From an archaeon (GTDB lineage Archaea > Micrarchaeota > Micrarchaeia > Norongarragalinales > UBA97), in contig JAGVFW010000008.1 of NCBI GenBank assembly GCA_020057405.1, forward strand, positions 3,218-67,217: a DNA stretch of 64,000 nucleotides, in the 5' to 3' direction. Position numbers and translations under genes: made by a program. Positions 32,937 to 63,734 of this stretch are shown here, piece after piece (positions within the stretch are counted from its first letter, which is position 1; every line of letters begins with the position of its first letter). Below the pieces are notes generated by a model. That model had not been told where the DNA came from and made no database searches. It saw nothing but the letters and a program-made list of their open reading frames with translations.

Positions 32937-35008
32937 CGGTGGATGCGGCCGTTGGCGATTGAAACGAGCCTATCTTGGAAGGCGGGGTTGAAAAGGTGGC
33001 CGCGCGCCTGGGACATGAGTCTTTCCTTGGCAGCGTAGAAGTTCGAGTAGTGGCTCATGTGATCGTGGTTGGGAATGGACTTGTCGCTGTGCGCGTACTC
33101 GTGCACCACTAGTTCGGTAAGTGCGTTTAGGTGTTCGTGGGTGAAGCGGCCTGCCTTGATGTCGGTGAGGGTGCGCCTGATGAGCGGGTCGCGGAGGTTG
33201 AGTGCCACCCAAGAAGAGGCGAGTGGCAAATGGGCTGAGCCGAGATTGTGCGCTGATTCCTTTCCGCCAAGCACGAGCCCAACGCCAATGTTTTGGGCGT
33301 CACTGTGTGCCGCAAGCTCGCGCGAAATCTCCGAAGCAACTCGGACTAGCCTAGCGCGCGGGTGGTTCGAACCAAAAGCCTGGCGAACGGCGTTTTCTGC
33401 CTGGAATAGCGGGTATGAAACTTGGGAGGAGAGCTGGGTTGCAAAGCCGCCAACCGCTTTTGCAGCTTCCCTCAAGCGCCCTTCGTCTTCCTCTTTTTGC
33501 TCGGGCTTTAGCAATTCGGCGTAGTCGGCGTGCACGTTGAGGCCTTCCTCGAGCTCTTCTGACTCAAGTGATTTTGATAGGAACAAGCGACCTGCCCCGA
33601 ATTCTCGTCGCGCGGTGTTGAGGCTGATTTTCGTTTTCTGTTGCTTTCCGTTCTCTACGCTCACTGCCGGAATGACTTTCTTGTTGGCAATCGAAGGTGT
33701 GAAAAGCCCGCCAAGCGAGAATCCGAGCCTTCGTTTGGTGACTGACACGCCCTTCTTTTCACGCGAGGCGAGCCTTTTGGCAATAGTGTTTTTGATGCCG
33801 TACACAACCGGTATTGCGCTAATCGCGCCTAGGGCATAAGCGCCATACTGTACGCCGTGCTCTGCAATGTCGGGCAGGTTGAGCTTGCTTGCGCCGTAGG
33901 CAAGCGCGGCTGCAGCTGCAACCTTTGCCGTCCTCCCGCCTAGCTTCTTCCAGTCGAACCTTGCCGACTGCAATAGTGCGAGCTCGCGCGGCGTCAGCGT
34001 TTCGCTTTTAAGAAGCAAATTCAGGTAGTTTTTCCTAAGCTTTGGCAGTTTGGCCATGACTGCCTCGTGGACTTCCTGTGGCACAGTGTCGCGCCCGCGG
34101 GTTAGGAGCACTTCAGTCGGAAGTTCGGCAACAAATTTGATGCCATTCGTCGGTTTCTCCCCCTGCACACTGGTAATTGCCAGGCCCGATTGAGTGAAGT
34201 TCAGCTCGCCTGACTGTGTGTGGTGGTAGGCTTGGGCAAAAATGTTTATTGGCCCGATAGGCGTGGCAACCGGTCCAAGCTGCGCGTAACCTTCGCGCGA
34301 GTTCAGCACCGCTTGCTTGCTTTTATACTTGCTCACAATCTGGTACTGCGTTGGGTCGACGAAATTCGCATAGTCTATGATGCTGTAGGTTGGAGCATAG
34401 TTGATCCGGATTCCGCGCGCCTCGACCGAAGTGCCCTGCAGGGGCTTTTTCAGCTTGGAGAATTCTGCAAAATACTCGCCGCCTTCCTTGAAGATACGCA
34501 CGGCATTGTCGCGGGAATTCACTACGACTTCTTTAGAAATTCCTGCAATTGCCTTGAATCCCTGGCCGTGGCCGCCAACGCTGCCCTTCACCTTGCTTGT
34601 TGCGCCAACGGTCAGCAAGTAGCGGATGATTCCCTCGGTGTCTAGCCCGCCCGCTTTATCACTTAGTACGAAGTTGCGCGTGCCGTCCCGGTTTTCTTTC
34701 TGTTCCACCTCGATAATTCCCGGGCCCTCCAATTCCCCGCGTTGTCGCATTGCCAAGTATGCATCCATCGAGTTTTGCACCAACTCCTGAAACGAACGGG
34801 CGCCCTGTGAATGCTGGAGCTCTGCTGCCTGGAGGAATTCCTTTTCCGCAAGAGCCTCGTCAACCTTTTGAGCTGCCGAGTGGATTAGCTCGTCCGCCTT
34901 TTGCTGCGAGCCTCTGCGGATTGCCTCGACAAGCCCATCCATCATCGGGCTTTGTCGGCCTTTGGCGTGGAAATACGACAGATACTTCACGGGTACTCTT
35001 ACGGCCAT
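32933..35008 (-). CDS. GHKL (Hsp90/sacsin-like) ATPase-domain protein with a C-terminal HExxH motif
   Basis: N-box FQELVQNSMDA, G1-like SDKAGGL, G2-like GGHGQGFKA. Central hydrophobic segments (AAAAALAYGASKL, YALGAISAIPVVYGI). C-terminal LVVHEYAHSD...HDHMSH. ATG 35008 lies 7 nt after the upstream stop. TTG 35029 (ORF track) would give a 14-nt overlap. Confidence 0.75.
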   Translation of the reverse strand: MAVRVPVKYLSYFHAKGRQSPMMDGLVEAIRRGSQQKADELIHSAAQKVDEALAEKEFLQAAELQHSQGARSFQELVQNSMDAYLAMRQRGELEGPGIIEVEQKENRDGTRNFVLSDKAGGLDTEGIIRYLLTVGATSKVKGSVGGHGQGFKAIAGISKEVVVNSRDNAVRIFKEGGEYFAEFSKLKKPLQGTSVEARGIRINYAPTYSIIDYANFVDPTQYQIVSKYKSKQAVLNSREGYAQLGPVATPIGPINIFAQAYHHTQSGELNFTQSGLAITSVQGEKPTNGIKFVAELPTEVLLTRGRDTVPQEVHEAVMAKLPKLRKNYLNLLLKSETLTPRELALLQSARFDWKKLGGRTAKVAAAAALAYGASKLNLPDIAEHGVQYGAYALGAISAIPVVYGIKNTIAKRLASREKKGVSVTKRRLGFSLGGLFTPSIANKKVIPAVSVENGKQQKTKISLNTARREFGAGRLFLSKSLESEELEEGLNVHADYAELLKPEQKEEDEGRLREAAKAVGGFATQLSSQVSYPLFQAENAVRQAFGSNHPRARLVRVASEISRELAAHSDAQNIGVGLVLGGKESAHNLGSAHLPLASSWVALNLRDPLIRRTLTDIKAGRFTHEHLNALTELVVHEYAHSDKSIPNHDHMSHYSNFYAAKERLMSQARGHLFNPAFQDRLVSIANGRIHR

Positions 35009-35015
35009 AGTCAAT

Positions 35016-36737
35016 TCATCTCTCAACAAGCTTGAAAATCAATTTTTGTTCCGCAGCGTCGTGACCGTAAAGTGCAATGGCAAGACAACGCTTGGCCCAA
35101 GCGCGGTCCTGCTGGGTAGCGCCCGTGAGTGCAGGGTGGTTGACGTTGACATAAAGGCCAGGCGCGACTGTCTTTTCAGCAGCAGAAGATACCTCCGATT
35201 TCTGAACAAAAAGAAATGGCGAATGATTCTGTGGCGACAAGCTTACTCGATGCACGATTAGCTCCTCTTCAGATTCGTCCTCTGGCTCTTCTTCAAAACC
35301 CATGGCTTTTTTCTCGGCGGCTGGCAGCTTGGAGAAAGGAAATGGCTTTGATGCCCGCCTTTCCTCAAGAAATGCGCCTAAATGGACGGCCGCCTTGTTT
35401 TCAAGCGTTCCAGAATTGAACGGCGAGAAGAATTGGTGGTACGCGCCTTCGCCGTAGAAATTCGCGTCGGCGGTTATGAAGTGAGTTGCATCCAAGTGTC
35501 TTTCGTCGCTTACTACGAGTCGCTTTTGAGGGTCAAGTTTGGGCTCATAAGGCTTTCGAAGGCCATTGGCGTATTCAATGATTTTATCCGTTTTCGCAAG
35601 TGCGCCAAAAGATTGCTTGTATTTGAAGCCAAGTTGGGTAAATCCGCCAAGCATCGCGCGCTTGAAGTCCTTAAAGTCGAGCGCCGCGCGTCCAGTCTTC
35701 CGTTCCCCTTCCATTTCCTGCACGTAATCCCATAACTTTGAGAAGACTATCGCTTCTGCCTGCTTCAGTTCGGGCGTTTCGCGAAAGTCGCGTCGGTTTT
35801 CCCCAACTTGGAATGAGGCGGGCATGTGCACGACTGTTCGGAACGGTTTCGCGCCGTAATTGTAAGGCATCTTGTTAAGCAAAATGCCGCCCGAAGTGAT
35901 TGGCAAGTACCGGCCAGTATTCATCCGCGAGCCGAAGTCGAGGTCAACTACTATCTTCTCGTCGCCAAACGGGATTTCGTACTTTCGAGCGTAACGCGAT
36001 AGCCTAGGCGGACGGTTGAGTTGCCTGCCGTTAAGCTCGATTACAGCGTGCTTTGGGCTCACGTGCTGCAGGTATTCGGATAGCTCTCGTGAAATTTCCT
36101 TAACCTGCCTCTTTGACAGTTCTCCGCTGATTTCGACGCGCGTTCCCGGAGCTGCAGAAGTCTTCTCGAATGCTGCCATGACGTCGTTGCCGGTTGGAGA
36201 GTTATCCGATGGCTTGAGGCTGAATTCAGCTGCAGTCGCGTGGCCGCCTGAGTTGCTCTCCACCCGCACTGCACGGGCGGTGCCAGATGTGAGAAATGAG
36301 AGATTTGAAAGAAAGCCAAGGCCGAAACGGCCAATTTGCTTTGAGGCTACGCCCGTCTCAGCCCTTGCTTTTCCGGAGTAGTACGGCACCGACAGGTTCT
36401 GCATCATCGAGTCAAGCGTCATGCCCCCGCCGTTATCCCTAACGACAACGCCGTTTCTGCCAACTGTGATGCTCACCTTGCCCCCGCCTTTCTCGCGCGT
36501 CGCGTCAACAGCGTTTGAAGCGAGCTCGACAACAGAGCGCGGGAGCTCAAACTGGCTGTTGACAAGGTCAAGAAACTTTCCGCGCACGAAGTGCTCGTCA
36601 AAAGACACTTGGTGGGAAGGCACTTCGCCGCTTCCGTGCACCGCCTTGACAACGCTCTTTCTTAGCTCGGCAAAATGCGCCTTGTCATACTGGGCAATGC
36701 CGAAAAGGCGGTGAGCCGGGATTTCGAAACGAGCCAC
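35016..36737 (-). CDS. GHKL (Hsp90/sacsin-like) ATPase-domain protein
   Basis: N-box VVELASNAVDA, G1 RDNGGGM, G2 IGRFGLGFLS. The order and spacing match Hsp90 (ELISNASDA / DNGIGM / IGQFGVGFYS). The C-terminal ~350 aa are unrecognised and include an acidic tract (EEEPEDESEEE). Confidence 0.8.
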   Translation of the reverse strand: MARFEIPAHRLFGIAQYDKAHFAELRKSVVKAVHGSGEVPSHQVSFDEHFVRGKFLDLVNSQFELPRSVVELASNAVDATREKGGGKVSITVGRNGVVVRDNGGGMTLDSMMQNLSVPYYSGKARAETGVASKQIGRFGLGFLSNLSFLTSGTARAVRVESNSGGHATAAEFSLKPSDNSPTGNDVMAAFEKTSAAPGTRVEISGELSKRQVKEISRELSEYLQHVSPKHAVIELNGRQLNRPPRLSRYARKYEIPFGDEKIVVDLDFGSRMNTGRYLPITSGGILLNKMPYNYGAKPFRTVVHMPASFQVGENRRDFRETPELKQAEAIVFSKLWDYVQEMEGERKTGRAALDFKDFKRAMLGGFTQLGFKYKQSFGALAKTDKIIEYANGLRKPYEPKLDPQKRLVVSDERHLDATHFITADANFYGEGAYHQFFSPFNSGTLENKAAVHLGAFLEERRASKPFPFSKLPAAEKKAMGFEEEPEDESEEELIVHRVSLSPQNHSPFLFVQKSEVSSAAEKTVAPGLYVNVNHPALTGATQQDRAWAKRCLAIALYGHDAAEQKLIFKLVER

Positions 36738-52525: not shown

Positions 52526-53572
52526 CTAGGGGGGCATGAACGTGCCGAAGGCGCCGCGCAGGACGCCCAAAGCGGCCAGGTAGATGCCAAGCGAGACTAG
52601 CACGAACGGCAGGACGTACTTTAGACCCTTGATTGCCTTGCCTTCCTGGATTAGCCCCAAAGACAGCGCCGCGAAGAAGGTGGTTATGAAGATGTTTGAG
52701 AGGGAAAACCAGAAAATGTCCTGGGCCGTAATAGAGTCGGGCGAGCGCTTCTTGGTGGCTGACGCAAACGTCGAGAGAGCACCAAGGCCTCCGGCCTGGC
52801 CTGAGACGCGCTTTGCATCGGAGCTCGATTGCTTGACCTGCTGCGCGAGGACTTTCTCGTTCATCTCGCTGTAGAAAGTCGACAGGCTGAATAGTGCCGG
52901 GGCTGCAAGCACTGCAGCGAATATGATGAAGATTGCGTACATCATCGTGCTCGTTATGATTTCCTTTTTCAGGAGCTGTTCTGAGCGGATGTCAACTGCC
53001 ACCGCGTCAAGGAGGGGCGCCATCTCGCCACCCAGGCGGATGCCCTCGTTGATGAGGCGGATGCTGCGCTCCAGGATGGCAGAGTGAACGCGCGAGGTCA
53101 TGCGCGTCAGGCTCTCGGTAATCGGCACGCCTCCGTAGGTGTCGGCACTAACGCGCTTGATTTCGTCGGCCATCGCGCCGAATTCGGGGCGCGCCGCGGT
53201 CCAGACCGCGTTCTCAAGGGTCATGCCGGCGCGGATGTTTGCGCTGATGATTTGGAGCGCTTCTGGGAGGATGGATTCAATGCGCTCGGCGCGCGTGTCG
53301 GCGGCTATGACCAAAAGCAGGTAAAAACCGGTCAGCGAGAGAGCGAAAACGCCTAGGGGCGTCACGACGAGCAGGATGTTGGTTTGCGTGATAAACGGCA
53401 TGATGAAGAACGAGAGGACGGCTAGAAAGAAGGAGAAGAACACTGCAAAGCCCACGTAAATGCGGGGGGAAATGTCGGTGAACCCGCCTTGGAGCATGAG
53501 CCTGCTGGCCCAGCGGGTGATGCCGCGCGGGAGGATGGCGGAAATTTGGTGGTAAATCCTTTCGAACACCAT
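52526..53572 (-). CDS. Type IV pilus platform protein, single T2SS-F domain (TadC-like)
   Basis: TM - soluble T2SSF domain (LPEALQIISANIRAGMTLENAV...ESLTRM..) - TM architecture. Confidence 0.8.
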   Translation of the reverse strand: MVFERIYHQISAILPRGITRWASRLMLQGGFTDISPRIYVGFAVFFSFFLAVLSFFIMPFITQTNILLVVTPLGVFALSLTGFYLLLVIAADTRAERIESILPEALQIISANIRAGMTLENAVWTAARPEFGAMADEIKRVSADTYGGVPITESLTRMTSRVHSAILERSIRLINEGIRLGGEMAPLLDAVAVDIRSEQLLKKEIITSTMMYAIFIIFAAVLAAPALFSLSTFYSEMNEKVLAQQVKQSSSDAKRVSGQAGGLGALSTFASATKKRSPDSITAQDIFWFSLSNIFITTFFAALSLGLIQEGKAIKGLKYVLPFVLVSLGIYLAALGVLRGAFGTFMPP

Positions 53573-53574
53573 CG

Positions 53575-54447
53575 TTAGATCACCGGGCGGCGGCTGCCGA
53601 CGAAGTTCATGAAGAAGAGCTGGAAGCCCGTCAGGCCACCCAACACCGCGATGAGCAAGAGCTTGGGCACCACGACGTTAAGGAGGCCGATGACGACGAT
53701 GAGCATGGTAAGGCCGAGGCTGGGCACGATGACTGCGGCCATCATGTAAATCATCGTAAAGGGCGACAGCTCCTGCCCGTACTTGCGGATTTGGTCGATG
53801 CGCTCGCGGGTGAGCTCGGCCACCTGCAGCTCGAGCACTATCGCAACGTCGCTGCCGACTTTCAGGGCGTTTGAGATTTGCCAGAGCACGCGGCGGAACT
53901 GCGGATTGGGGTTTGACGTTGTTGACTCGGCGATTGCGTCGAGCTCGGGCACGCCTGAATTGATTTTCTGCACTATTTTTCGGAATTCCTTGCTGACTTC
54001 GCCGTAGTCGGTGCTCACGCTCGCCATCGAGTTGAAGAGCGGCACGCCCGACTTGATTTCAATGAGGAGCTGGCGCACCGCCGGAATCAGGGTGGCGTCA
54101 AGCTCGCGCGACCTCTTGCCGGCAATCACCTGCGGGTAGTAGAGTATGGTGATGAAGGTTGCGAAAAAGACTATTATCATGAGGGCAAGGCCGAAGGCGA
54201 GCATGGAAACGTTGTGGGTGACTACAGCAATGACGACGAAGAGGAGCACGATTGCAAAACTGTTGAAGAACGCGGCGGTAAAAGCAAGGGCGGCGTAATT
54301 GCGTGCGGTGTAGTCGCTCTCGGCCTGCAAAAGCGAGTCGTGCATGAAGGGAAAGAACGCCGAGGTGAAGTAGCCGAAGTTCTCAAAGTTGTGTGAAAGG
54401 GATTCCAGTAGTGGGGCGGGGAGTATCGAGAACGGAATGCGCTTCAT
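53575..54447 (-). CDS. Type IV pilus platform protein, single T2SS-F domain (TadB-like)
   Basis: Same architecture (LIPAVRQLLIEIKSGVPLFNSMASV..). Lies 2 nt upstream of the TadC-like gene. Confidence 0.8.
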   Translation of the reverse strand: MKRIPFSILPAPLLESLSHNFENFGYFTSAFFPFMHDSLLQAESDYTARNYAALAFTAAFFNSFAIVLLFVVIAVVTHNVSMLAFGLALMIIVFFATFITILYYPQVIAGKRSRELDATLIPAVRQLLIEIKSGVPLFNSMASVSTDYGEVSKEFRKIVQKINSGVPELDAIAESTTSNPNPQFRRVLWQISNALKVGSDVAIVLELQVAELTRERIDQIRKYGQELSPFTMIYMMAAVIVPSLGLTMLIVVIGLLNVVVPKLLLIAVLGGLTGFQLFFMNFVGSRRPVI

Positions 54448-54454
54448 CCCCCGT

Positions 54455-55948
54455 TCACTCCAGAAGAAGTTTTACAATCTGGCCCTTCTCGGCCAGGCCG
54501 ACGACCGAGTCCTTGTCAAGGTAGTAGCCTGCGATGACGCGCCCCACGTCGTTGACCTTCATAATCTGCTTGTCAACCATCGCTTCAAGGACAGTCTGCT
54601 TGCCCTTCATGTCCTCGAAAATTTCCTTCTGAGTCATGCCAGTGTGCAGCATGAGGTCGTTTGAAATGCGGAGTAAATCGCCGACTTTGCGCAGCTTGTC
54701 CTCGCGCGCGTCAAGCTTGTAGACGATGTTGAGGCTCGCACCGTCATTGGTCTGCAGAAGCTCGGCAATCTCGTAAGTGCGCCTAACGCCGGTGCGCCTC
54801 TGGCGGTACTGGACTAAAATGAGCTGGAGGGACCCGACGAGCATTTCGGGCAGGCTGATTGGCGGGTTGATGAGCCGCTGCTTGACTTGCGAAGCGTCGT
54901 CGGCGTGAAGCGTGCCGTAGACGCTGTGGCCAGTGTGCACGGCCTCGAAGAGGACTTCGGCCTCGCGCTGTCTGCGGATTTCGCCAAGCACGATTCTATC
55001 GGGCCGCATACGCAGGCTGTTTACCATCAGGTCAAGCATCTCAACCCCGCCGCGGCCCTCGGGGTTGGGCTGGCGCGTGCTCATCGGCACCCAGTTGAGG
55101 AACTCCGGCAGCACGAGCTCGCGCGTGTCCTCGATGGTGATTACGCGCTGGTTGGGCGGGGTGAAGATTAAAAGCGAGTTAAGCATCGAGGTCTTGCCAC
55201 TGCCGGTGCCCCCGCCGACGATCATGCTCATTTCGTACTGCATGGCGAGCCAGATGAGTGCGGCTGCGTCGGGGGTAATCGTGCCGTTGGTGATGAGATT
55301 TGAAATCGTCCACGGGTCTTTGGCAAACTTGCGGATGGTGATGGTGTTGCCGTGCGTAGAGATTGGGAAGAGCGTGGCGTTGACGCGGTCCCCAGTGCCG
55401 AGGTTGGCGTCAAGGAGGGGGCTGAGGTTGGTGATTTGCCTGCCGACGCGGCGGCCGATGATGCTCGAGTAATTGTGAATCTGCTCCTCGGTCGGGACGT
55501 AGATGTTGGACTTTAGCCAGCCGTGGCGCTTGTGGTAGACCCAGACTGGCTCGCGGCTTGAGTTTACGACGAGCTCTTCGAGGTTCTCGTCCGCCAAAAT
55601 GAGTTCGAGCTCTCCTAGCCCGAGCATTTCCTGGCTGAGGCGGCCGACGATGATGCGCTCCTCGTCGTCGGTAAGGCCGCTTAGTTCGGCCCTAACGATT
55701 TCGTGCGCCTTTGCGACCAGGCGTTGCTTGACGCGCTCGCCCTCGCGGGGGTCAAGGATTTCGCTTACCTTGATGTTTACCCCTTCGATGATTTTTTCCT
55801 TCAAGTAGTTTATCGCAACGGTCGTCGCTTCCCTCAGGCGCGTGTGGCGGAGCTCGTAGATGCGGACGTACTCGTGCGGCTCTTCCACGATGGCGACTTC
55901 TGCTGGTACGCCCTCGCTTTCTATCTCGTAAGTTTCGAGAACCTTCAT
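54455..55948 (-). CDS. Type II/IV secretion-family assembly ATPase (archaeal PilB/FlaI/TadA-like)
   Basis: Walker A GGGTGSGKTS, Asp box VITIEDTREL, Walker B/His box RPDRIVLGEIR...HTGHSVYGTLHA. Confidence 0.9.
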   Translation of the reverse strand: MKVLETYEIESEGVPAEVAIVEEPHEYVRIYELRHTRLREATTVAINYLKEKIIEGVNIKVSEILDPREGERVKQRLVAKAHEIVRAELSGLTDDEERIIVGRLSQEMLGLGELELILADENLEELVVNSSREPVWVYHKRHGWLKSNIYVPTEEQIHNYSSIIGRRVGRQITNLSPLLDANLGTGDRVNATLFPISTHGNTITIRKFAKDPWTISNLITNGTITPDAAALIWLAMQYEMSMIVGGGTGSGKTSMLNSLLIFTPPNQRVITIEDTRELVLPEFLNWVPMSTRQPNPEGRGGVEMLDLMVNSLRMRPDRIVLGEIRRQREAEVLFEAVHTGHSVYGTLHADDASQVKQRLINPPISLPEMLVGSLQLILVQYRQRRTGVRRTYEIAELLQTNDGASLNIVYKLDAREDKLRKVGDLLRISNDLMLHTGMTQKEIFEDMKGKQTVLEAMVDKQIMKVNDVGRVIAGYYLDKDSVVGLAEKGQIVKLLLE

Positions 55949-56847
55949 CGGCCTCTCCTCTTGATGACGAAGCGCTTGCGAACTGAACCCGATTTCGAGC
56001 CGGGGCGAAGCTTGAACGGCATTGGTAGCTTGCGCGAGCTTGCGGGAGCTTCCTCTTCCTTTTGCGTCTCCGGACGCGCAGTGGCTGTTACCGGCGCCAG
56101 GGTTTGCTTGGGCTTTTCTTCGCCGGGTTTTTCCCCGCTTGCCTCTGGCTTCTCGCCGAGGATTTCATCCGGCCCGGCTTTTGGCTCAGTGGCCGGCTTG
56201 GAGGCCGCCCCCGGCTTCTTGACTATCAGGATGATGTCAAGCAGGTTAAGCAAAAAGTCGATGATGCCGCTCCTTCCTTTTCTTGGCGCGGAGGTCGCGC
56301 GGGCTTCGATGTGGTCAATGCGAGACCTGAATCCCTTGAGCTTGGAATAGAATTCAGTCTCGCGCTCGCCTAGTTTGCGCACTTCCGCGCTGAAGCTTTC
56401 AAGCTGCTGGAGGGCCAAGTCAACTTCAGTGCGCAGGCGGTCAAGTTCCTCGGCAGTAAAGCCCTCGCGCGACTCAAGGTCGGCCAAGAGTTTTTCGGAA
56501 ACGTGAATGCGGCGTTCGATGTCGGTCTCGAAGAATCGGAGCAGGTTCTCGGTAGTCAGGATTTCGCGCTCAAGGCGGCTGACTTCCTCGATTGCGCTCG
56601 TGCCTTCGTCCTTGTCCCCTAATTCCTGCTTTTGGACTGAGGGCTTCTTCTTTGAGACGAGGCGGATGCCTGAAATCGAGTAGTGAACGTCAATTAAGCC
56701 CGCCTCCTCAAGCAAAAGCGCGAAGCGCTCGACTTGCGCGGGCTTACGCGCGACGGCCTTGGCGGCGTCCTTTAGCGATACGCTGCCGCTTGCCGCAATG
56801 TAGTCGGCCAGCCGGTCGATTACAGTCTGAATGTCTTCCTTAACCAC
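55945..56847 (-). CDS. Pilus-locus accessory protein (wHTH-like N-terminus, coiled coil, K/E/P-rich tail)
   Basis: First gene of the minus-strand operon. Its stop overlaps the ATPase start (ATGA). No recognised family. Confidence 0.55.
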   Translation of the reverse strand: MVKEDIQTVIDRLADYIAASGSVSLKDAAKAVARKPAQVERFALLLEEAGLIDVHYSISGIRLVSKKKPSVQKQELGDKDEGTSAIEEVSRLEREILTTENLLRFFETDIERRIHVSEKLLADLESREGFTAEELDRLRTEVDLALQQLESFSAEVRKLGERETEFYSKLKGFRSRIDHIEARATSAPRKGRSGIIDFLLNLLDIILIVKKPGAASKPATEPKAGPDEILGEKPEASGEKPGEEKPKQTLAPVTATARPETQKEEEAPASSRKLPMPFKLRPGSKSGSVRKRFVIKRRGR

Positions 56848-56939: not shown

Positions 56940-59900
56940 ATGCCGATGCGTAAGGGCATAGTCTTCTCTCTTGACGCAGTGCTGACGCTGCTAGTGCTCT
57001 TGATGCTGGTGCCGCTCTCTAGCTTCTTTAGGCTTGAGACGACGCCGTCTCCCGTGTTCCAAAGCTCGCTGTATTTTCAGGCGCAGGACGCGATTGACTC
57101 TCTTTCGCGAGTGCGGATTTCGGATGTCAGGTCGAATCCGGCGGTTCAGAGTATTTTCGACCAGGGGCTTCTTACGGACGAGGAATTAAATGCGTCTGTG
57201 CTTGACGCCATCGGCGGGCTTTGGGCGATGAACACTACTATTAGCCGGAGTGCGGCGACGAACCTTACCCGCGCCATGCTTGACGGGCTGATGCCCCAAA
57301 GCGTGCAGTGGGGCTTTGCCGCCGAAGTGCCGGGGGGCGAGGACCTGCTCTACAACACTTCACAAATGCCTTCCGACGCGCGCGTGGTGTTCAAGAGCAC
57401 GCGCTACGCGTCCGGCTTCCAGATAAACCAGCCTTCGCGGGGTTACGTCGCACGCGCGGTGTTGGATGCCATCAAGGGCAAGCAAAGCGCGTCATACGCC
57501 TACTTCGGAGGGTTTGTCGGACAGGGCAACGTCACGGCAGCCATTGACGGCGTGCCCGACGATGCGGACGTGAAGTGGATTTATGTTGAAGCCGACTTGG
57601 GCAGCAACGCCACGGTATTTGTTAACGGCGTTCAGTGCGGCACGCTAAACGTGAGCCGCGATCCCATATTTCAGGCGGCAAACGCGACTTACACCGGCGC
57701 AGGTTGCTTAAGCGCGGTTGTGAAGGGAGCGGCAAACACGGTTTTTCTTAACTTCAGCGGTTCTGACGACCTGGTCAAGTACGTTGGCGGCGGTTACGCC
57801 AGCATCACTTACTCGACTCAAAAGTTTGCCGACACTTCGGAAAACCGGACACTCTACCGGTTCCCTGGCATCCGTGGCCTCGTGAATCTGTACGACTCGT
57901 TCTACGTGCCCGGCAATGTCACCAATGCGAGTGCCTACGTCCACATCAACACGAGCTACCAGTTCTACCTGCAAATAGGGAACGCGACAGTCATCAACTC
58001 ATCCGGTGCATCCGGCGAGCAAATGATCTTTATTGACAACGCCACGTTTGCGGCCAACATCAGCAAGGCATTCTACGGCGGGGGAAGCACGCTGAACCCG
58101 CTTGACGCGACAAACGTGCCCGTGCGCCTTGGCCTTGCCAACATCCCGCTAAACCAGGCGGCCGACATTTCACTCTCAATAGACGTTTCGGGAAGCATGG
58201 CAACTTGCGTCGGCGCCAGCGGCATCACCCCGACGAAGAATGAAAACTTTACTGTCGACAACGGCATCCTCTATTGCGGCGCGGTTTCCTACGCCACGTG
58301 CGTGCTGCCCGACTTTGAAACGCGCGTGCAGGGGGCAGTCAACGCGTCCAAGAGCTTTATCGACCACATCATCACCCGCTCGATAAACCGCCTGGGAATC
58401 GCCGAGTTCACGGCCGCAAGCTCCCGCAACAATTTCGGCAGCCCGCCTGCGGGTTTCTACAACTTCATTCCAACCGGCATTTGGCCGTGGATGTCGAAGA
58501 ACTACCCCTACCGCGTGCACCTTGAAATACTCAATAACAACCTCACGCGCCAAATTCCCGCAGGCACGCCTGTAAACTTCAGCTTCAACCACTCGCGCCT
58601 GGCGATTCAAGGCAAGTCTAACGCGAGTGGCTATGACGTGCGCGTGGCGTGGTTTAACACATCACTTGGCACCTACGTCATGCTCGAGCGCTTCAACACC
58701 ACCAAATTCAACGACCCGGCGGCGCAGACGACAGTGTGGTTCCCGCTGCAGCAAAACGTGAGTGCCGGTTCCGTTGACTACAACTACTTTGTCTACTACG
58801 GCAACATGACCGCCACCAACCCGCCCGACGACCCGCGCAGGATTTTCCTGCTCTACGACGACTTTTCAGACGGCGACTACGCCAACTTCACCAACTGGAC
58901 TGCCAGGGTGAACTCCACAGTCTGGAACGTCACGTCCGGCAACCTCACCGTCAACGGCAGCAACTACAAGGCGACGATATTCGCGGGCGATCCAAGCTGG
59001 AGCGACTACGCGGTCGAGGCGGACGCGTGGTTCGGGCCGGTAAACAACAACCAGACCGCAAGCGTGTTGCTTTACTTCAACTCGACGATGACGGGCGGCT
59101 ATGAAACTACGATGATGGGCGCGGCGCTTGACGACTACCGCAACTACTGGTGGAACGGATTAAACGGCTCACAGGCAAGTTACGGCAAGTTCGTGCAGCT
59201 CTCAAGCTCAAACCTCGCTAACATCGCCAACAACCGGTGGTACCACTTCAAGACCGGCATCTACGAAAAGTACCTCCGCTCGTTCCTTGACGGGACGCTC
59301 TACAATACCAACTTCAACTCATCTTACTCCTCCGGCCTCATCGGCCTTGGCGCAGGTGGTGGCACGGGCGCGAATAATGCCTTCGTCAGGTTCAGGAAAG
59401 TTTTCGTGCGCAAATGGATTTACCCGGACCCGACGACAACAGTCAACAAGGAAGAGGCGTTTTCGGGAGGGGGCACGACGATGCTCACACTCGGAATTCT
59501 AAACAACGCGAGCGCCAATGTCTTCAAACCGGTGAATAACACGTTCTCCTACGCAAACGGCACGGAAATCGGCAACAACACGGCAGTGCCATTCATCCCG
59601 TTTGACTCTGCAAGCGCCTCAATTGACTGGAACTACACCCCAGGCGTCACTATCGTTAACGCCACCACCGACTACCCGCCTGCGCCCAACGGCGAGTTCT
59701 CGGAGTCTAACGAGTCAAACAACATCAGCGCAAGAATCGTTTTCAAGCCCGACCTGCGCGTGGACTGGGTTGCGATAACGCCGTTTGCGCCCGTTGCCGG
59801 CGCAGTCAATACCTTTACGCTAAACGCACTCGTCATCAATCAGGGGCCGGTTGACGCAAGCAACATCGTAGTGCGATTTACAAAAGCATCGGGCGAGAAC

Positions 59901-61493
59901 TCGGGAACATGGGGAGAAACCACGGTATCGCTTGCATCAGGCCAAAGCGCAATGGCGGCGCTAGTGGTTGCAAAGACTTTTGCAGTAGTGGGCCAGCACA
60001 ACCTGACTGCAACTGCTGACCCTGACGGCGTTATCGACGAGAGCTACGAGACAAACAACGCCGGTTACGGTAGCATCTGGGTTGCCGGCAAAGGCAGCGA
60101 CTACTTCGGCGGCGTTGCAGACAACTACACTGGCCGGGGAACGGCGGGAACGCTTTACTACACGCCCGCAAACGTTTGCGGCGGCCCGACGACCACGATA
60201 TTCGGCAACGGCAAGGCGAGGAGCCTGAACCTGACGAGCAACACGCGGTCCCTGAAGGACTTTTTGGCATCATCCAAACCGTGGTTAAACACCTGCATCT
60301 GCTGCGGCGTCAACGCAAGCGTCGAGCTTTTGCGCTCGAACAACGCGGTGCAGCGCACGCGCTCGCTCATCCTCATGACTGACGGGCAGCCCAACGTCGA
60401 CTGCCCGGGAATGCCCGGCAGCACTGGAAATCCAGTCCGCGACTCCATCGTCTCCGCCTGCAACGCTTACAACAACTACAGCATCCGCGTTTACACCATC
60501 GGCTTTGGCACGCAGACCGGCGGGGAAGTCAACTGGACGCTGCTTAAGGCAATGGCCGACTGCGGAGGTGGCGCTAACTACTCTGGAGCCAACTCAAGCG
60601 AGCTTGAAATCGCGTTCCAGAAAATCATCGAACAAATCCTCAACCAGACGCAGATCCAGCAGGCAATCAACGTGAGCGGCGATTATATCACGACGAACTT
60701 GTTCCCGGACTCATACATCGACGTCAACTACACTTACAACCGCCCGCCGCCCGCGTTTAAGGAAATCACGCTGCCGATAGAGACCGACAGGTTCGGCTCG
60801 TGCATGGGAACTTACTACGTTCCCACCGGGCTGACGCCCTACGACGTGCGCGTAACGTCATACAGCGGCAGCTTATGGACCGCGAAAGTTTCGGTGAACT
60901 CTAGCACGAGCGTGCCCTGGAGCGACACGTTCAAGCTCTCCAAGTGGGGGCAAAGGTTCGACAACCTGGGCGACCCGTTCGCAATCCACTATCCATCTTA
61001 CCTCGTGCCATTTAACGAGAACAACTCAGTCAACGTCAGCCTGGGGCTAAACGCCTCGGCCGGCTCGCAGATGTGCTCGAACTCCAGCCGGGTCATCTAC
61101 GACGCGCGCGTGAAGGGCTCGGTGGGCTACGGAAACGTTTTCATAAACGCCAGCGGCTTTAACCTGACGGTCTACTACGACGCCAACCACGATGGCGTTG
61201 CCGACGGCTTTAGCTATGTTGCAGTCGGTCAGGACTTAACCCAGTTCAATGCAACAGCCATTAACGTGTCGGCCCTTGACACGGCGCGCAACGCCCTTGC
61301 CGATGCGGTGGCGCGGCTGTTAGTTGAGCTGAACTTCTTTAACCCAGGCAGCAATCCCAACCCAGCCGGCTCGCAGCAAAACCCGATTGACATCCAGTTG
61401 TCGGACTCGATTGCCATCCAGTCAAACGACTTGGGCGGCGTGCCATTCATGTGGGGGCCCAACGCGTTTAGCGTAAGAGTGTGGGGCAAATGA
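56940..61493 (+). CDS. Giant pilin-like adhesin (1,518 aa): class-III-like signal/TM, VWA domain with nested DUF2341-like, LamG-like and CARDB-like domains
   Basis: ATG 56940 lies 27 nt after GCTTTATAAG. N-terminus MPMRKGIVFSLDAVLTLLVLLMLVPL. MIDAS DVSGS at 58182-58196, alpha1/beta2 (..SKSFIDHII..RLGIAEF). Then RVHLEILNNN..YFVYYGN (DUF2341-like), LLYDDFSDGDY..W..Y (LamG-like), PDLRVDWVAI..INQGPVDA..DESYETNN (CARDB-like). The VWA then resumes with NTCICCGVNASVELL, LILMTDGQPN (60366-60395) and IRVYTIGFG. There are dozens of N-x-S/T sequons. Confidence 0.8.
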   Translation: MPMRKGIVFSLDAVLTLLVLLMLVPLSSFFRLETTPSPVFQSSLYFQAQDAIDSLSRVRISDVRSNPAVQSIFDQGLLTDEELNASVLDAIGGLWAMNTTISRSAATNLTRAMLDGLMPQSVQWGFAAEVPGGEDLLYNTSQMPSDARVVFKSTRYASGFQINQPSRGYVARAVLDAIKGKQSASYAYFGGFVGQGNVTAAIDGVPDDADVKWIYVEADLGSNATVFVNGVQCGTLNVSRDPIFQAANATYTGAGCLSAVVKGAANTVFLNFSGSDDLVKYVGGGYASITYSTQKFADTSENRTLYRFPGIRGLVNLYDSFYVPGNVTNASAYVHINTSYQFYLQIGNATVINSSGASGEQMIFIDNATFAANISKAFYGGGSTLNPLDATNVPVRLGLANIPLNQAADISLSIDVSGSMATCVGASGITPTKNENFTVDNGILYCGAVSYATCVLPDFETRVQGAVNASKSFIDHIITRSINRLGIAEFTAASSRNNFGSPPAGFYNFIPTGIWPWMSKNYPYRVHLEILNNNLTRQIPAGTPVNFSFNHSRLAIQGKSNASGYDVRVAWFNTSLGTYVMLERFNTTKFNDPAAQTTVWFPLQQNVSAGSVDYNYFVYYGNMTATNPPDDPRRIFLLYDDFSDGDYANFTNWTARVNSTVWNVTSGNLTVNGSNYKATIFAGDPSWSDYAVEADAWFGPVNNNQTASVLLYFNSTMTGGYETTMMGAALDDYRNYWWNGLNGSQASYGKFVQLSSSNLANIANNRWYHFKTGIYEKYLRSFLDGTLYNTNFNSSYSSGLIGLGAGGGTGANNAFVRFRKVFVRKWIYPDPTTTVNKEEAFSGGGTTMLTLGILNNASANVFKPVNNTFSYANGTEIGNNTAVPFIPFDSASASIDWNYTPGVTIVNATTDYPPAPNGEFSESNESNNISARIVFKPDLRVDWVAITPFAPVAGAVNTFTLNALVINQGPVDASNIVVRFTKASGENSGTWGETTVSLASGQSAMAALVVAKTFAVVGQHNLTATADPDGVIDESYETNNAGYGSIWVAGKGSDYFGGVADNYTGRGTAGTLYYTPANVCGGPTTTIFGNGKARSLNLTSNTRSLKDFLASSKPWLNTCICCGVNASVELLRSNNAVQRTRSLILMTDGQPNVDCPGMPGSTGNPVRDSIVSACNAYNNYSIRVYTIGFGTQTGGEVNWTLLKAMADCGGGANYSGANSSELEIAFQKIIEQILNQTQIQQAINVSGDYITTNLFPDSYIDVNYTYNRPPPAFKEITLPIETDRFGSCMGTYYVPTGLTPYDVRVTSYSGSLWTAKVSVNSSTSVPWSDTFKLSKWGQRFDNLGDPFAIHYPSYLVPFNENNSVNVSLGLNASAGSQMCSNSSRVIYDARVKGSVGYGNVFINASGFNLTVYYDANHDGVADGFSYVAVGQDLTQFNATAINVSALDTARNALADAVARLLVELNFFNPGSNPNPAGSQQNPIDIQLSDSIAIQSNDLGGVPFMWGPNAFSVRVWGK

Positions 61494-62440
61494 GGCGCGG
61501 AATCATCTACTCGATAATGCTTCTCTTGCTTTTGGCTCCAGTGCTGCTCTTCATATTCAGCTACGCGAATTCCGCAGGACAAAGGAACGCACAGCTCGTC
61601 TCGCACATAAGAGGCAGCGAGATAGCAAGCTTCTCGGATTCGGTATCGCAGGATGTGCCCCGCGTGCTCGAAATCGCGGGCAAGCGCGCGATTGTCTCGT
61701 CAATAAACTACGTGGACGTCAACGGATTACCCCTTGACGACGCGGCGGCCCGCATACGCGAGCTGATGGTGAACAACAGCCTCTACGGCGTCCACCAGAC
61801 CGCGATGGACGGCGCATCCGTGACCGACTGGACGGTCAACCTGCACGCGCTTGGCGCGCAAAGGGGCTTTAACGTCACGGTCAACGTCACTAGCGTGCAA
61901 ATATCGCCCAAGGACGCATTCACGCTAAACCTCACGGCCTACATGCAGGTAAACATCAGCGACATGGTGCAGACGGTAAACATCACGCGCACTTACTTTG
62001 ACTCAAAAGACATTCCCATCGCTGGGTTCGAGGACCCGCTCTACGTGCTAAACAGCCAAGGGTTCATCAAGCGCACCTTCACCGCAAACCAAAGCCCGGC
62101 TTTTGGCCTCGCGGCGTTTGACGCTTTTGCATCCTCAGGGCGCTACGCGCCAAGCTCAACGGGACCAAGCTTCCTCGACAGGCTTGAAGGCAAGTTTTAC
62201 ACACAATCGAAGTACGCAAGCCAAACGCCGGCGCTCATCGGGCTTGACAGCCTCGTTAACATCACTGAATTTGAAATCCGCGGCCTGCCGGTGCGCTACA
62301 ACCAAAGCACGCTCGACTACCATTTCTTCAATGCGAGCACCGTCTACGGCTACAAGATAACCGGCTCAAGCCTGCCGCTCCAGCGGCTGGCCAATGGCAC
62401 AAACGCTTCCTACGGCGTCTACCTCGACCTGAACTCTTAA
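61490..62440 (+). CDS. Pilin-like secreted/anchored protein
   Basis: ATG 61490 overlaps the upstream stop (ATGA). N-terminus MRRGIIYSIMLLLLLAPVLLF. About 12 N-x-S/T sequons. Confidence 0.7.
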   Translation: MRRGIIYSIMLLLLLAPVLLFIFSYANSAGQRNAQLVSHIRGSEIASFSDSVSQDVPRVLEIAGKRAIVSSINYVDVNGLPLDDAAARIRELMVNNSLYGVHQTAMDGASVTDWTVNLHALGAQRGFNVTVNVTSVQISPKDAFTLNLTAYMQVNISDMVQTVNITRTYFDSKDIPIAGFEDPLYVLNSQGFIKRTFTANQSPAFGLAAFDAFASSGRYAPSSTGPSFLDRLEGKFYTQSKYASQTPALIGLDSLVNITEFEIRGLPVRYNQSTLDYHFFNASTVYGYKITGSSLPLQRLANGTNASYGVYLDLNS

Positions 62441-62874
62441 GAAGACGCGTTAAGCTGGACGACTATGTTGCCGTTGGCTTGGCGAACTGCAGCGACAGTC
62501 ACCGACATAGCGCCGGGGGAAGTGCCGGCCTCCACGAGGCCATTTGCCGACAGGTTGGCGTAAGTGACTGCATAGGCGGTGGTGTTGTAGACCGCCGAGC
62601 CGATGACTAGAGTAATCTCGCGGCCGGACGCGTTGAAGAACGTCGTGTCGTGCGGAATTGAAATGGCGACGTTAACTTGGGCCGGCGGGCCCTGCGTGTA
62701 GACGAGGTCGGCTGCGTCCTTTAGCTTTCCGACCGCCTGCTTGGCGGCTGCAATCGAGGCTCCGCTGTCGGCCTGGGTGGCGGCCCCAGTGCTGAAAAGC
62801 CAGATGATTGCGAAGATGGTGAGCGCCATGACGGCAACGGCCATATACTCAACTGAAGCCTGCGCCCTTTCCAC
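62437..62874 (-). CDS. Archaeal type IV pilin (DUF361-type class III signal peptide)
   Basis: RA-QASVEYMAVAVMALTIFAII matches the Q(+1)..E(+5) pilin N-terminus. Start assigned to GTG 62874 (MERAQASVEY). The ORF-track start 62934 would leave 0 nt to the divergent pilin gene. Confidence 0.7.
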   Translation of the reverse strand: MERAQASVEYMAVAVMALTIFAIIWLFSTGAATQADSGASIAAAKQAVGKLKDAADLVYTQGPPAQVNVAISIPHDTTFFNASGREITLVIGSAVYNTTAYAVTYANLSANGLVEAGTSPGAMSVTVAAVRQANGNIVVQLNASS

Positions 62875-62895
62875 GCAAGGTAATAACCCTCTGGC

Positions 62896-62906
62896 CTTTT
62901 TATTTC
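62896..62906. promoter_or_regulatory. TATA-like box (CTTTTTATTTC) between divergent pilin genes
   Basis: Lies about 34 nt from ATG 62935 and about 27 nt from GTG 62874. Confidence 0.4.
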
Positions 62907-62934
62907 CCGCCTGTGTACACGCCTTAGACAACAA

Positions 62935-63327
62935 ATGAAGGGACAGGCGGCGCTAGAGTTTATAGCCATCGTAGGCATCCAGCTCGCAGTACTCGCACTC
63001 GCGTGGCTGTACTTCAATACCAACTACCAGTCGACAATCCAGTCGCTTGACGCTGCAAAGGCGCGCGACGCGGTTGAAAAAATTAGCGCGACCGCCCAGA
63101 TAGTCAGCCTCCAGGGCCCACCTGCCAAGCAAACGGTGGTGGTGGACTTTCCCTCAAACATCCAGTCGGTCAACGTCACCGGCCACGAGGTGCTAATCAA
63201 GCTTGCCGCCAACGGGGAGGCCTACGCCTATTCCCCGGTCCTATTAAACGGCAGCGTGCAGACAACGGCGGGCACCGCCTTAATCACAATTGAGGCACTG
63301 CAGGGCGTAGTGCAGATAACGGGATGA
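62935..63327 (+). CDS. Archaeal type IV pilin (DUF361-type class III signal peptide)
   Basis: MKG-QAALEFIAIVGIQLAVLALAWLYF is a canonical short class III signal with Q+1 and E+5. Confidence 0.8.
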   Translation: MKGQAALEFIAIVGIQLAVLALAWLYFNTNYQSTIQSLDAAKARDAVEKISATAQIVSLQGPPAKQTVVVDFPSNIQSVNVTGHEVLIKLAANGEAYAYSPVLLNGSVQTTAGTALITIEALQGVVQITG

Positions 63328-63734
63328 GTGAAATGCGGGGACAGTCGTCAATAGAGTTCATGCAGGCCGTCGGCCTGCTCTTAGCCATTTTCATCGTACT
63401 TACCCCGGTCGCCTACATCAAGTACACCGACAACCTAAACGCGCAGCTGCGCACCGACGCACAGCTTGTTGCCGACACCGTCGCGGGAGAAATAAACACG
63501 GCCGCCGGCGTTGGCACGGGCTATCGGCGCGCGTTCATTCTCCCGCCGCTTTTGGGCGACTCGCGGCCATACACAGTCACAATCTACGCGGCCGAACAGC
63601 AAGTTTACGTAAACTGGACCGACTCGACTGCGGTGAGCTCGGCAATAGCCACTTCAAACGTGACGCAAACCAGCCCGCTTGACCCGGGCGAGAACATCGT
63701 GTTTAACAACGGCGGGCTAATCGAGGTTGGGTGA
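63324..63734 (+). CDS. Archaeal type IV pilin (DUF361-type class III signal peptide)
   Basis: MSEMRG-QSSIEFMQAVGLLLAIFIVL. The start overlaps the upstream stop (ATGA). ATG 63333 (MRGQ..) is an alternative. Confidence 0.8.
   Translation: MSEMRGQSSIEFMQAVGLLLAIFIVLTPVAYIKYTDNLNAQLRTDAQLVADTVAGEINTAAGVGTGYRRAFILPPLLGDSRPYTVTIYAAEQQVYVNWTDSTAVSSAIATSNVTQTSPLDPGENIVFNNGGLIEVG

Follow-up and report, generated by a model that had tools for sequence, protein, structure and literature searches.

What protein is encoded by a gene whose VWA domain appears to be broken apart by several other domains, beside a type IV pilus-like gene cluster of an archaeon? The gene in question lies at 56940-61493, on the forward strand, of a 64,000-nucleotide stretch of a Micrarchaeota contig (GenBank assembly GCA_020057405.1, contig JAGVFW010000008.1), hereafter referred to as the window. 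A first-pass annotation of this DNA had described its product as a pilin-like adhesin in which one VWA domain is split by nested DUF2341, LamG-like, and CARDB-like modules. The analysis confirmed that the protein contains a single VWA domain interrupted by a nested insert, a domain-within-domain architecture and not a linear fusion. We infer an adhesin function, and we place a probability of roughly 0.7 on the product being a modular pilin-like adhesin, large and N-glycosylated, of one of the tiny symbiotic archaea of DPANN type, with pilus-like machinery encoded alongside.

A Single VWA Domain Interrupted by a Nested Insert

The open reading frame (ORF) runs without interruption in a single frame from the ATG at 56940 to the stop codon at 61491-61493 and encodes 1,517 residues. 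The database copy of the protein (P0001, on a 68-kb contig) is the second-methionine form, which starts two codons later and has 1,515 residues. A hidden Markov model (HMM) built from 48 insert-free homologues aligned with the ORF as two colinear pieces spanning HMM positions 1-456 and 452-861 (E 2.4e-113 and 1.8e-108), with approximately 593 residues between the pieces and no profile positions lost. BLASTP against P0017, a homologue with a contiguous VWA domain, aligned query residues 3-508 to P0017 residues 2-478 and query residues 1086-1513 to P0017 residues 457-918. At the residue level, the break maps between beta2 (RLGIAEF) and beta3 (ARSLNLTS), that is, to the beta2-beta3 hairpin, and alpha2, the threonine in TCICC, beta4 with MTDG, and beta5 with GFG are all C-terminal to the insert.

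Pfam searches of the native protein recovered the C-terminal half of the VWA domain only (residues 1122-1223, profile positions 83-169 of 174) at 17.4 bits, below the gathering threshold of 23.8, and the N-terminal half alone had no Pfam match. When the insert was deleted in silico, a Pfam VWA_2 match ran across the junction (residues 63-156 of the spliced sequence, profile positions 18-107). The profile alignment thus describes one interrupted VWA domain rather than two unrelated fragments, in agreement with the first-pass annotation. The spliced sequence still scored below threshold, at 21.9 bits for VWA (threshold 23.8) and 22.0 bits for VWA_2 (threshold 27), whereas the insert-free P0017 passed with a VWA_2 match of 55.5 bits at residues 391-518; the low score of the query is due to its divergence, the insert, and a long beta1-alpha1 loop. 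Among PDB sequences, phmmer found no match to the spliced VWA domain; matches there required a family profile.

Structural models were compared with the canonical order of the VWA domain (PF00092/PF13519), beta1-alpha1-beta2-beta3-alpha2-alpha3-beta4-alpha4-beta5-alpha5-beta6-alpha6, a Rossmann-like alternating fold. AlphaFold2 was run on residues 385-1262 with a 54-sequence alignment. Both VWA pieces were modeled with predicted local distance difference test (pLDDT) values of ~85-98 and in the canonical element order, with the insert between beta2 and beta3. Each VWA element of the query has its counterpart in the contiguous VWA domain of P0017, and the P0017 model (mean pLDDT 86.1) contains a complete VWA domain that superposes on solved stand-alone VWA domains with TM-scores of up to 0.79. 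From the confidence values and the homology, the two halves of the query domain would be expected to be in contact and to pack into one domain. Foldseek matches of the insert to arrestin-type beta-sandwiches fell in a low-confidence region and were rejected as spurious.

The metal-ion-dependent adhesion site (MIDAS) is complete in sequence, and metal binding is predicted. It comprises DVSGS at residues 415-419 (58182-58196), Thr 1118 of NTCICC (codon 60291-60293), and Asp 1148 of MTDG (codon 60381-60383, in the LILMTDGQPN that starts at 60366). Within the family, the D, S, G, S, and T positions are nearly invariant and the Asp of MTDG is invariant. These motifs, along with RLGIAEF of beta2, IRVYTIGFG of beta5, and the MIDAS threonine region NTCICCGVNASVELL, were found where the first-pass annotation had placed them. 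Two of its details required correction: the insert, given as ~650 residues, measures about 593-598, and the VWA domain resumes not at the threonine region but ~25 residues before TCICC, at beta3 (ARSLNLTSN). In family alignments, the MIDAS threonine stands inside a nearly invariant T-C-I-C-C motif (60291-60305). Other conserved cysteines of the VWA domain are at positions 421, 444, 452, 1117, 1119, 1120, 1153, 1172, and 1206 in P0001 numbering; these may form disulfides or a second metal site beside the MIDAS.

The split could in principle be an artefact, either an assembly chimera in 58.4-60.2 kb or two unrelated, degenerate VWA-like fragments, and the native Pfam result, a sub-threshold match to the C-terminal half only, is in keeping with this. 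We consider it effectively refuted. An assembly error inside 58.4-60.3 kb, a concern raised in the first-pass annotation, was not borne out, because a homologue of the same architecture (P0002), with an identity of 60% overall and 52% in the insert, was found on two contigs from different metagenome assemblies. It also has the same neighbors: HhH-GPD, pyruvate kinase, two T2SSF genes, T2SSE, an ORF of unknown function, the VWA gene, a 316-residue ORF, and small ORFs. A third member of the family, P0005, has an insert at the same site. The single open frame, the uniform sequon density, the colinear HMM match with its full set of profile positions, and a flat GC content of 0.55-0.60 across the gene, which has no tandem repeats, all argue against the artefact.

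Modules of the Nested Insert

The insert was described in the first-pass annotation as three modules, of which two pass their Pfam thresholds. DUF2341 scored 28.6 bits (threshold 23.4) on the sub-segment 58428-59000, and it was reported by the sub-segment scan only and not by the whole-protein Pfam scan; the same module is above threshold in P0002 (29.0 bits). CARDB scored 37.4 bits (threshold 22.7) over profile positions 1-98 of 101. The concanavalin A (ConA)-like or LamG-like module between them is sub-threshold. A weak fourth module had been missed: insert residues ~440-550 match CARDB repeats of tandem-repeat proteins, and some of these alignments reach back to ~346, which suggests an extra immunoglobulin (Ig)/CARDB-like module between the ConA-like module and CARDB. 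This stretch had no Pfam match and was poorly modeled. In the linker that returns to the VWA domain, the strand TTIF may pair with the strand that exits after beta2.

Relatives of the 598-residue insert were counted at E <= 1e-3 in an exhaustive HMMER search against 1.84 billion representative proteins. There were 919, and the whole insert was covered by P0002 only. A word-indexed homology search with the insert alone returned just two CARDB-repeat proteins and missed even P0002. Insert residues ~20-346 align as a single unit of two domains (DUF2341 and a ConA-fold domain) to hundreds of other proteins. The nearest named carriers of this unit are archaeal, from Hermodarchaeota (annotated as GH16), Promethearchaeota, and Nitrosarchaeum. 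Among 27 relatives of the unit, DUF2341 was found in 19, 3keto-disac_hyd in six, and Laminin_G_3 in two. Elsewhere this surface module is part of a linear multi-domain chain, whereas here, and at a different loop in the family members P0109 and P0053, it is nested in a VWA domain.

A DPANN-Wide Family with Three Insertion Sites

Homology searches with the whole protein returned 164 relatives, and all of the named ones are of DPANN type (Micrarchaeota, Aenigmarchaeota, Woesearchaeota, Altiarchaeota, and Nanohalobium). They are annotated at most as "VWA domain-containing protein". Approximately half have 840-1,040 residues and a contiguous VWA domain, as in P0017. In species-representative genomes, at least 451 loci encode a relative, and the 80 loci retrieved all came from DPANN-type metagenome-assembled genomes except for a few with doubtful bin labels.

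Using an HMM of the short members, inserts of at least 100 residues inside the VWA domain were detected in 64 of 120 listed relatives, at three hot spots that were assigned to loops with the P0017 model as a guide. The rarest is site A in the beta2-beta3 hairpin, with three proteins (the query, P0002, and P0005); 35 of the 120 have their insert at site B (alpha3-beta4 junction) and 26 at site C (beta4-alpha4 loop). The combination of modules that the query has at site A occurs in two proteins only. Insert content varies widely. P0109 and P0053 carry at site B a DUF2341 plus LamG-like module homologous to the query's cassette, P0107 carries Laminin_G_3, DUF2341, and Reelin subrepeat B, P0037 carries Reelin subrepeat B, P0104 of Nanohalobium carries GEVED, and a group of Micrarchaeota proteins carries a BNR-like propeller at site C. 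The 973-residue insert of P0005 at site A includes a clear CARDB domain, and other stretches of it resemble CARDB weakly. The head had been called very unusual, which stands in relation to characterized VWA adhesins but not within the family; judged from the sequences, the nested design is a family trait and not a one-off, and it is this site and this cassette that are rare.

A rough neighbor-joining tree of the shared core placed the three site-A proteins together, beside an insert-free group and the Micrarchaeota site-C clade, and site B appeared in at least eight separate blocks. Crude as this tree is, it suggests repeated gain or loss of inserts. Two family paralogues with different inserts were found in tandem at 1804-11261 of locus L005 (GCA_043814255.1, Micrarchaeota): P0005, of 1,940 residues, with its CARDB-containing insert at beta2-beta3, and a protein of 1,215 residues with a BNR-like propeller in the beta4-alpha4 loop. 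They are followed by a 336-residue ORF, at the position of the conserved partner described below, two small ORFs, and a T2SSE gene. The 64-kb window itself encodes one family member only.

The N-Terminus, Flanking Regions, and Sequons

The N-terminus has the form of a class III signal peptide, with a short basic leader, Gly at -1, and a hydrophobic helix (MPMRKG followed by IVFSLDAVLTLLVLLMLVPL). The pattern of K/R-G followed by hydrophobic residues was common to all 60 homologue N-termini inspected. In the P0017 model, a long N-terminal helix (residues 2-28 and 31-54, ~53 residues) resembles the alpha1 helix of pilins. An acidic residue at +6 after the predicted cut is also kept in family alignments (window 56958-56984), being Asp in at least 90% of members, and recalls Glu5 of bacterial type IV pilins.

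On either side of the VWA domain are large regions specific to the family. The N-terminal 410 residues had no Pfam family match at E <= 10, and the corresponding region of P0017 was modeled at high confidence, with helices at 57-111 and strands at 117-377. For the C-terminal 277 residues, two weak sub-threshold Pfam matches were obtained (Excalibur and a cadherin motif). N-x-S/T sequons numbered 65 in the protein against 22.3 ± 4.3 in shuffled sequences, about three times chance, and cytoplasmic proteins of the window had zero to one per 100 residues. The first-pass annotation was correct about sequon richness but had confined it to an N-terminal region of ~400 residues; the insert and the remainder of the protein have them at an even density. 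An exposed, extracellular location is indicated because the sequons are so heavily enriched (65 vs. 22 expected), with the insert included.

A Type IV Pilus-like Locus with a Conserved Partner

The VWA gene is encoded together with genes for a secretion/pilus assembly ATPase and two platform proteins, which lie upstream on the opposite strand, and is followed by a 319-residue ORF and small ORFs (Table 1). Neighbors were counted in 41 loci with full 6-kb flanks. A T2SSE homologue was present in 35 of these, T2SSF genes in 31 and 27, and a homologue of the 319-residue ORF in 38; the last was also present in loci L001-L005. Synteny is kept in the Micrarchaeota loci. Because of these counts, the VWA protein and the 319-residue protein are, as far as gene content can tell, a conserved pair in a DPANN-wide type IV pilus-like locus. 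The 319-residue ORF, which has no Pfam match, is likely an obligate partner and perhaps a minor pilin or adaptor. It was rejected as a paralogue of the VWA protein, with which it has only the signal-peptide motif in common.

In the three small pilin-like proteins, a hydrophobic helix comes after the N-termini AQASVEYM, KGQAALEF, and RGQSSIEF, and a weak PF04021 match of 12.4 bits, below threshold, was obtained. The locus thus holds two flavors of signal peptide, (A/G)Q-x-x-x-E in the small ORFs versus K/R-G followed by I-V/I-F/Y-S in the VWA protein and its partner. A 300-residue ORF between the ATPase and VWA genes was rejected as a conserved partner, being present in four of the 41 loci, all of closest relatives. 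Its N-terminus weakly resembles a winged helix (HVO_A0114, E 0.002), and the rest includes a coiled coil and a tail rich in Lys, Pro, and Glu.

Table 1. Positions in the window of the VWA gene, its parts, and the genes of the adjoining locus.
Feature	Position	Strand	Remarks
Whole VWA gene	56940..61493	+	Modular pilin-like VWA protein; alternative start 56946; family HMM matches in two pieces
Class-III-signal-peptide-like leader and hydrophobic helix	56940..57029	+	MPMRKG/IVFSLDA; predicted prepilin-peptidase cut after Gly6
Family-specific N-terminal region	57030..58157	+	Helical part, then large beta domain; conserved across family, without Pfam match
VWA part 1	58158..58427	+	beta1 with MIDAS DVSGS, Cys-containing loop, alpha1, beta2; aligns to P0017 389-457; pLDDT ~85-97
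Nested insert	58428..60221	+	~598 residues; in VWA beta2-beta3 hairpin (hot spot A); HMM gap between positions 456 and 452
DUF2341 beta-sandwich module	58488..58850	+	Pfam PF10102; six strands at pLDDT ~60-70
ConA-like/LamG-like module of lectin-glucanase fold	58869..59411	+	Pfam 3keto-disac_hyd, residues 644-824, E 1.3e-4
Putative Ig/CARDB-like module	59463..59744	+	Weak assignment; phmmer local alignments to tandem CARDB-repeat proteins, insert ~346-440
CARDB module	59745..60062	+	Pfam PF07705, residues 936-1041, E 3.2e-9; five strands at pLDDT ~60-80
Return linker from insert to VWA	60063..60221	+	Includes strand TTIF; short strands 494-497 and 1084-1087 in model
VWA part 2	60222..60665	+	beta3 (ARSLNLTS), alpha2, alpha3 with Thr, beta4 with Asp, alpha4, beta5, alpha5, beta6, alpha6; aligns to P0017 464-641; pLDDT 88-98; matches Pfam VWA profile positions 83-169
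Family-specific C-terminal beta-rich region	60666..61490	+	Conserved across family; confident in P0017 model, residues 663-918
T2SSF (TadB/TadC-like) platform gene	52526-53572	-	One of a pair; Pfam PF00482, E values of pair 1.7e-13 and 2.1e-15
T2SSF (TadB/TadC-like) platform gene	53575-54447	-	Second of the pair; Pfam PF00482
T2SSE-type secretion/pilus assembly ATPase	54455..55948	-	Pfam PF00437, E 2.3e-34
300-residue coiled-coil ORF	55945-56847	-	Between ATPase and VWA gene
319-residue conserved partner	61481..62440	+	Class-III-like MGQMRRG/IIYSIMLLLL; start overlaps end of VWA gene; 12 sequons
Small pilin-like gene	62437-62934	-	One of three with (A/G)Q-x-x-x-E class III signal peptide
Small pilin-like gene	62935-63327	+	(A/G)Q-x-x-x-E class III signal peptide
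Small pilin-like gene	63324-63734	+	(A/G)Q-x-x-x-E class III signal peptide

Two further parts of the window deserve a brief description. A giant ORF (1-14702, forward strand), cut off by the start of the window, has more than 4,884 residues and only three sequons. Nothing in Pfam matched it at E <= 1e-3; two stretches near residues 3991-4053 are hydrophobic, and toward the N-terminus its sequence resembles repeats of a beta-sandwich unit. The product may be a giant DPANN protein of the cell surface or of cell contact. At 32933-36737 (reverse strand), two adjacent ORFs of 698 and 573 residues contain a GHKL-type HATPase_c_3 domain and no other recognized domain, and may be a MORC-like or defense-type pair.

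Proposed Function and Alternative Explanations

The description of the protein as a tip or minor-pilin adhesin fits the class-III-type signal peptide, the DPANN pilus-locus context, and the structural matches to pilus adhesins, although in our hands it is still a proposal. A prepilin peptidase would remove the short leader after the Gly, and the hydrophobic N-terminal helix would anchor the protein in the membrane or the pilus; within a pilus, the tip would be the most plausible position because the protein is so bulky. The adjacent machinery would export and display it. The beta2-beta3 hairpin is opened to carry the ~595-residue cassette of DUF2341, ConA/LamG-like, Ig-like, and CARDB modules. 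In general VWA topology, with beta2 parallel to beta1, the beta2-beta3 turn lies on the MIDAS face, so the cassette would sit beside the metal site and could add to or redirect ligand binding. The DUF2341 and ConA-like pair would probably bind glycans, the MIDAS could bind an acidic side chain of a ligand, and attachment would be to a host cell or some other surface. In the family as a whole, the VWA domain would be a scaffold in which three loops take different multi-domain cassettes, thereby diversifying binding specificity.

Several observations weigh against this reading or parts of it. Foldseek searches with the query model returned VWA domains for the C-terminal part only (~150 columns), and the packing of the two halves is not demonstrated thereby. 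The insert was modeled at low confidence and its position relative to the MIDAS rests on textbook topology, while the 3keto-disac_hyd match of the ConA-like module reached 22.5 bits, short of the threshold of 26.8, in a module with pLDDT below 40. Hot spot B (alpha3-beta4) should be on the face opposite the MIDAS, and hence not all inserts of the family can act next to the metal site. The Pfam class III signal peptide model (PF04021) did not match the VWA protein, because that model fits the G-Q-x-x-x-E type of the small neighboring genes, and no prepilin peptidase gene was identified in the annotated parts of the window. A 1,500-residue subunit might be presented at the membrane and not within a filament. 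Finally, literature searches found neither an experiment on this DPANN VWA family nor a paper describing it.

A possible membrane location leads to an alternative in which the architecture is the same and the protein is not a filament subunit, the signal peptide serving only the export, and the anchoring by the N-terminal helix, of a membrane-tethered adhesin or envelope component. Archaeal non-pilus proteins that use prepilin-type signal peptides for export or anchoring are known, such as Sulfolobus sugar-binding proteins. The very large size would suit such a protein, as would N- and C-terminal domains with no sequence match to solved pilins, the lack of matches to the Pfam class III signal peptide and pilin models, and the small (A/G)Q-x-x-x-E pilin genes nearby, which look like the real fiber subunits. 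We nevertheless judge it unlikely: the gene is tightly linked to those of the pilus ATPase and platform throughout DPANN, the top structural match, PilB, is a genuine modular type IV pilin, and the homologue model has a pilin-like alpha1 helix of ~53 residues. Modular pilins of such design are documented in bacteria (PMC8179133).

It is improbable that the protein is instead a pilus biogenesis, priming, or anchoring factor, as proposed for TadG and PilY1, with the VWA domain contacting the machinery and the insert as an accessory. The family and its 319-residue partner do form a near-universal core of the locus (38 of 41), a pattern commoner for essential assembly factors, and TadG-type VWA proteins have been proposed as pilus anchors (PMC4858521). 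On the other hand, inserts so extremely diversified, and heads that differ between tandem paralogues, are seen more typically in parts that face a ligand than in machinery contacts, the heavy sequon enrichment points to an exposed location, and the whole-protein Pfam scan at E <= 1 showed no TadG- or PilY1-type domain. Quite improbable, in our estimation, is a catalytic head, with the ConA-fold module as an enzyme, GH16-like or 3-keto-disaccharide-hydrolase-like, that the pilus would deliver for the remodeling of glycans of the host or the environment. Pfam does match the module best to 3keto-disac_hyd, and a close relative of the DUF2341-containing unit is annotated as a "family 16 glycoside hydrolase"; against this, the match is below threshold, relatives also match the lectin-type Laminin_G_3, and the module is poorly modeled.

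A modular pilin-like adhesin would have wider implications. How DPANN archaea find and attach to hosts is largely unexplained, and the VWA family is a concrete candidate attachment molecule because it is an uncharacterized family that is near-constant in a DPANN type IV pilus-like locus. The nested cassettes may set what these archaea stick to, which predicts that insert content correlates with host or substrate and that mutants in the MIDAS or the insert lose attachment. A bolder proposal, possible but doubtful, is that the family is the host- or surface-recognition determinant of DPANN episymbionts, with VWA as a cassette-display scaffold whose modules are exchanged at three loops. If so, lectin-like, Ig-like, and propeller modules would be repeatedly gained, lost, and swapped at the beta2-beta3, alpha3-beta4, and beta4-alpha4 loops, a single pilus locus would contain paralogues that differ in their heads, and insert content would track host range. 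Such specificity by domain shuffling inside one fold would have no described counterpart among pilus adhesins. The protein is also a natural example of the tolerance of the VWA fold to domain insertion.

Comparison with Known Systems

In a 2016 census of archaeal type IV pili, VWA proteins appear as regulators only (ArnB type), and TadG is mentioned in bacteria (PMC4858521). A 2026 preprint on archaeal type IV filament systems describes DPANN loci with two platform genes and "adhesin-like" proteins and no VWA protein, and cryo-tomography of DPANN archaea reported pili-like filaments with no adhesin named (PMC11329633).

The first-pass annotation had compared the protein with TadG and PilY1, which holds as a functional analogy and fails as family membership, with the defining domains absent from the Pfam scan. 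TadG and PilY1/PilC likewise contain a VWA domain, are pilus-associated, and are thought to act in adhesion, anchoring, or surface sensing, and the locus resembles the Tad system in having a T2SSE ATPase and two TadB/C-like platform genes. The whole-protein Pfam scan at E <= 1 returned CARDB, 3keto-disac_hyd, VWA, and ChiC only. TadG membership was rejected on the lack of a TadE/TadG-type N-terminal domain, and PilY1/PilC membership on the lack of the C-terminal beta-propeller family; furthermore, PilY1 is not a pilin and has no pilin-type N-terminus, whereas the query has one. NCBIfam gave weak matches in the VWA region to CglB and BatA only.

The I-like domain of integrin beta-subunits has the VWA fold as well, and in it an insertion on the MIDAS face, the specificity-determining loop (SDL), tunes the specificity for ligands; nested domain organization is typical of integrins. 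The SDL occupies the betaB-betaC loop, which would be equivalent to the beta2-beta3 loop here. It is a loop of ~30 residues and not four domains, and nothing beyond the fold links the two proteins in evolution. In integrins, the SDL contacts the ligand directly (PMC12422189).

Structure and profile searches pointed to pilus adhesins of bacteria. The best Foldseek matches of the family scaffold were the minor pilin PilB (E 2e-12), ITIH1, Mfa5, PitA, SpaC, the LapA vWFA domain, RrgA, and GBS104, and the best sequence-profile matches in the PDB, confined to the VWA region, were Mfa5 (1e-19), the Vibrio fischeri structure 4RCK, PTMP1, and PilB (2e-10). RrgA, GBS104, SpaC, PitA, and Mfa5, to which the structural or profile matches were strong, are pilus-tip adhesins with a MIDAS-containing VWA domain and inserted arms. 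In adhesins of the RrgA/GBS104 type, these arms make up the cradle for binding and vary more than any other part (PMC7893114). These proteins belong to unrelated pili (covalent sortase-type or type V), their inserts are tens of residues long, and in RrgA it is the VWA domain itself that is nested within Ig-like domains.

PilB of Streptococcus sanguinis (PDB 7B7P) resembles the query in its order of parts, a class III signal peptide, a pilin-type helix, and then a MIDAS-containing VWA module, and in being encoded in a type IV pilus locus. Its MIDAS is flanked by inserted "arms", and PilC of the same organism is a pilin with a ConA-like lectin module (PMC8179133). The likeness has limits: the Foldseek alignment to PilB has a high root-mean-square deviation of 11-13 Å, the profile search found no sequence similarity outside the VWA domain, and the canonical beta-sheet module of pilins is not shown in the family. 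PilB is bacterial, has ~460 residues in two modules set end to end, and its arms are short, the larger being a four-stranded sheet; the query is archaeal, with a ~595-residue, four-module cassette nested in the VWA domain and large extra N- and C-terminal domains. By analogy, the modular pilin PilB, Mfa5, and the tip adhesins of sortase pili appear to be better comparators than TadG or PilY1, and the DPANN family would extend to archaea the two principles of bacterial pilus adhesins, modular pilins and inserted arms, up to ~970 inserted residues.

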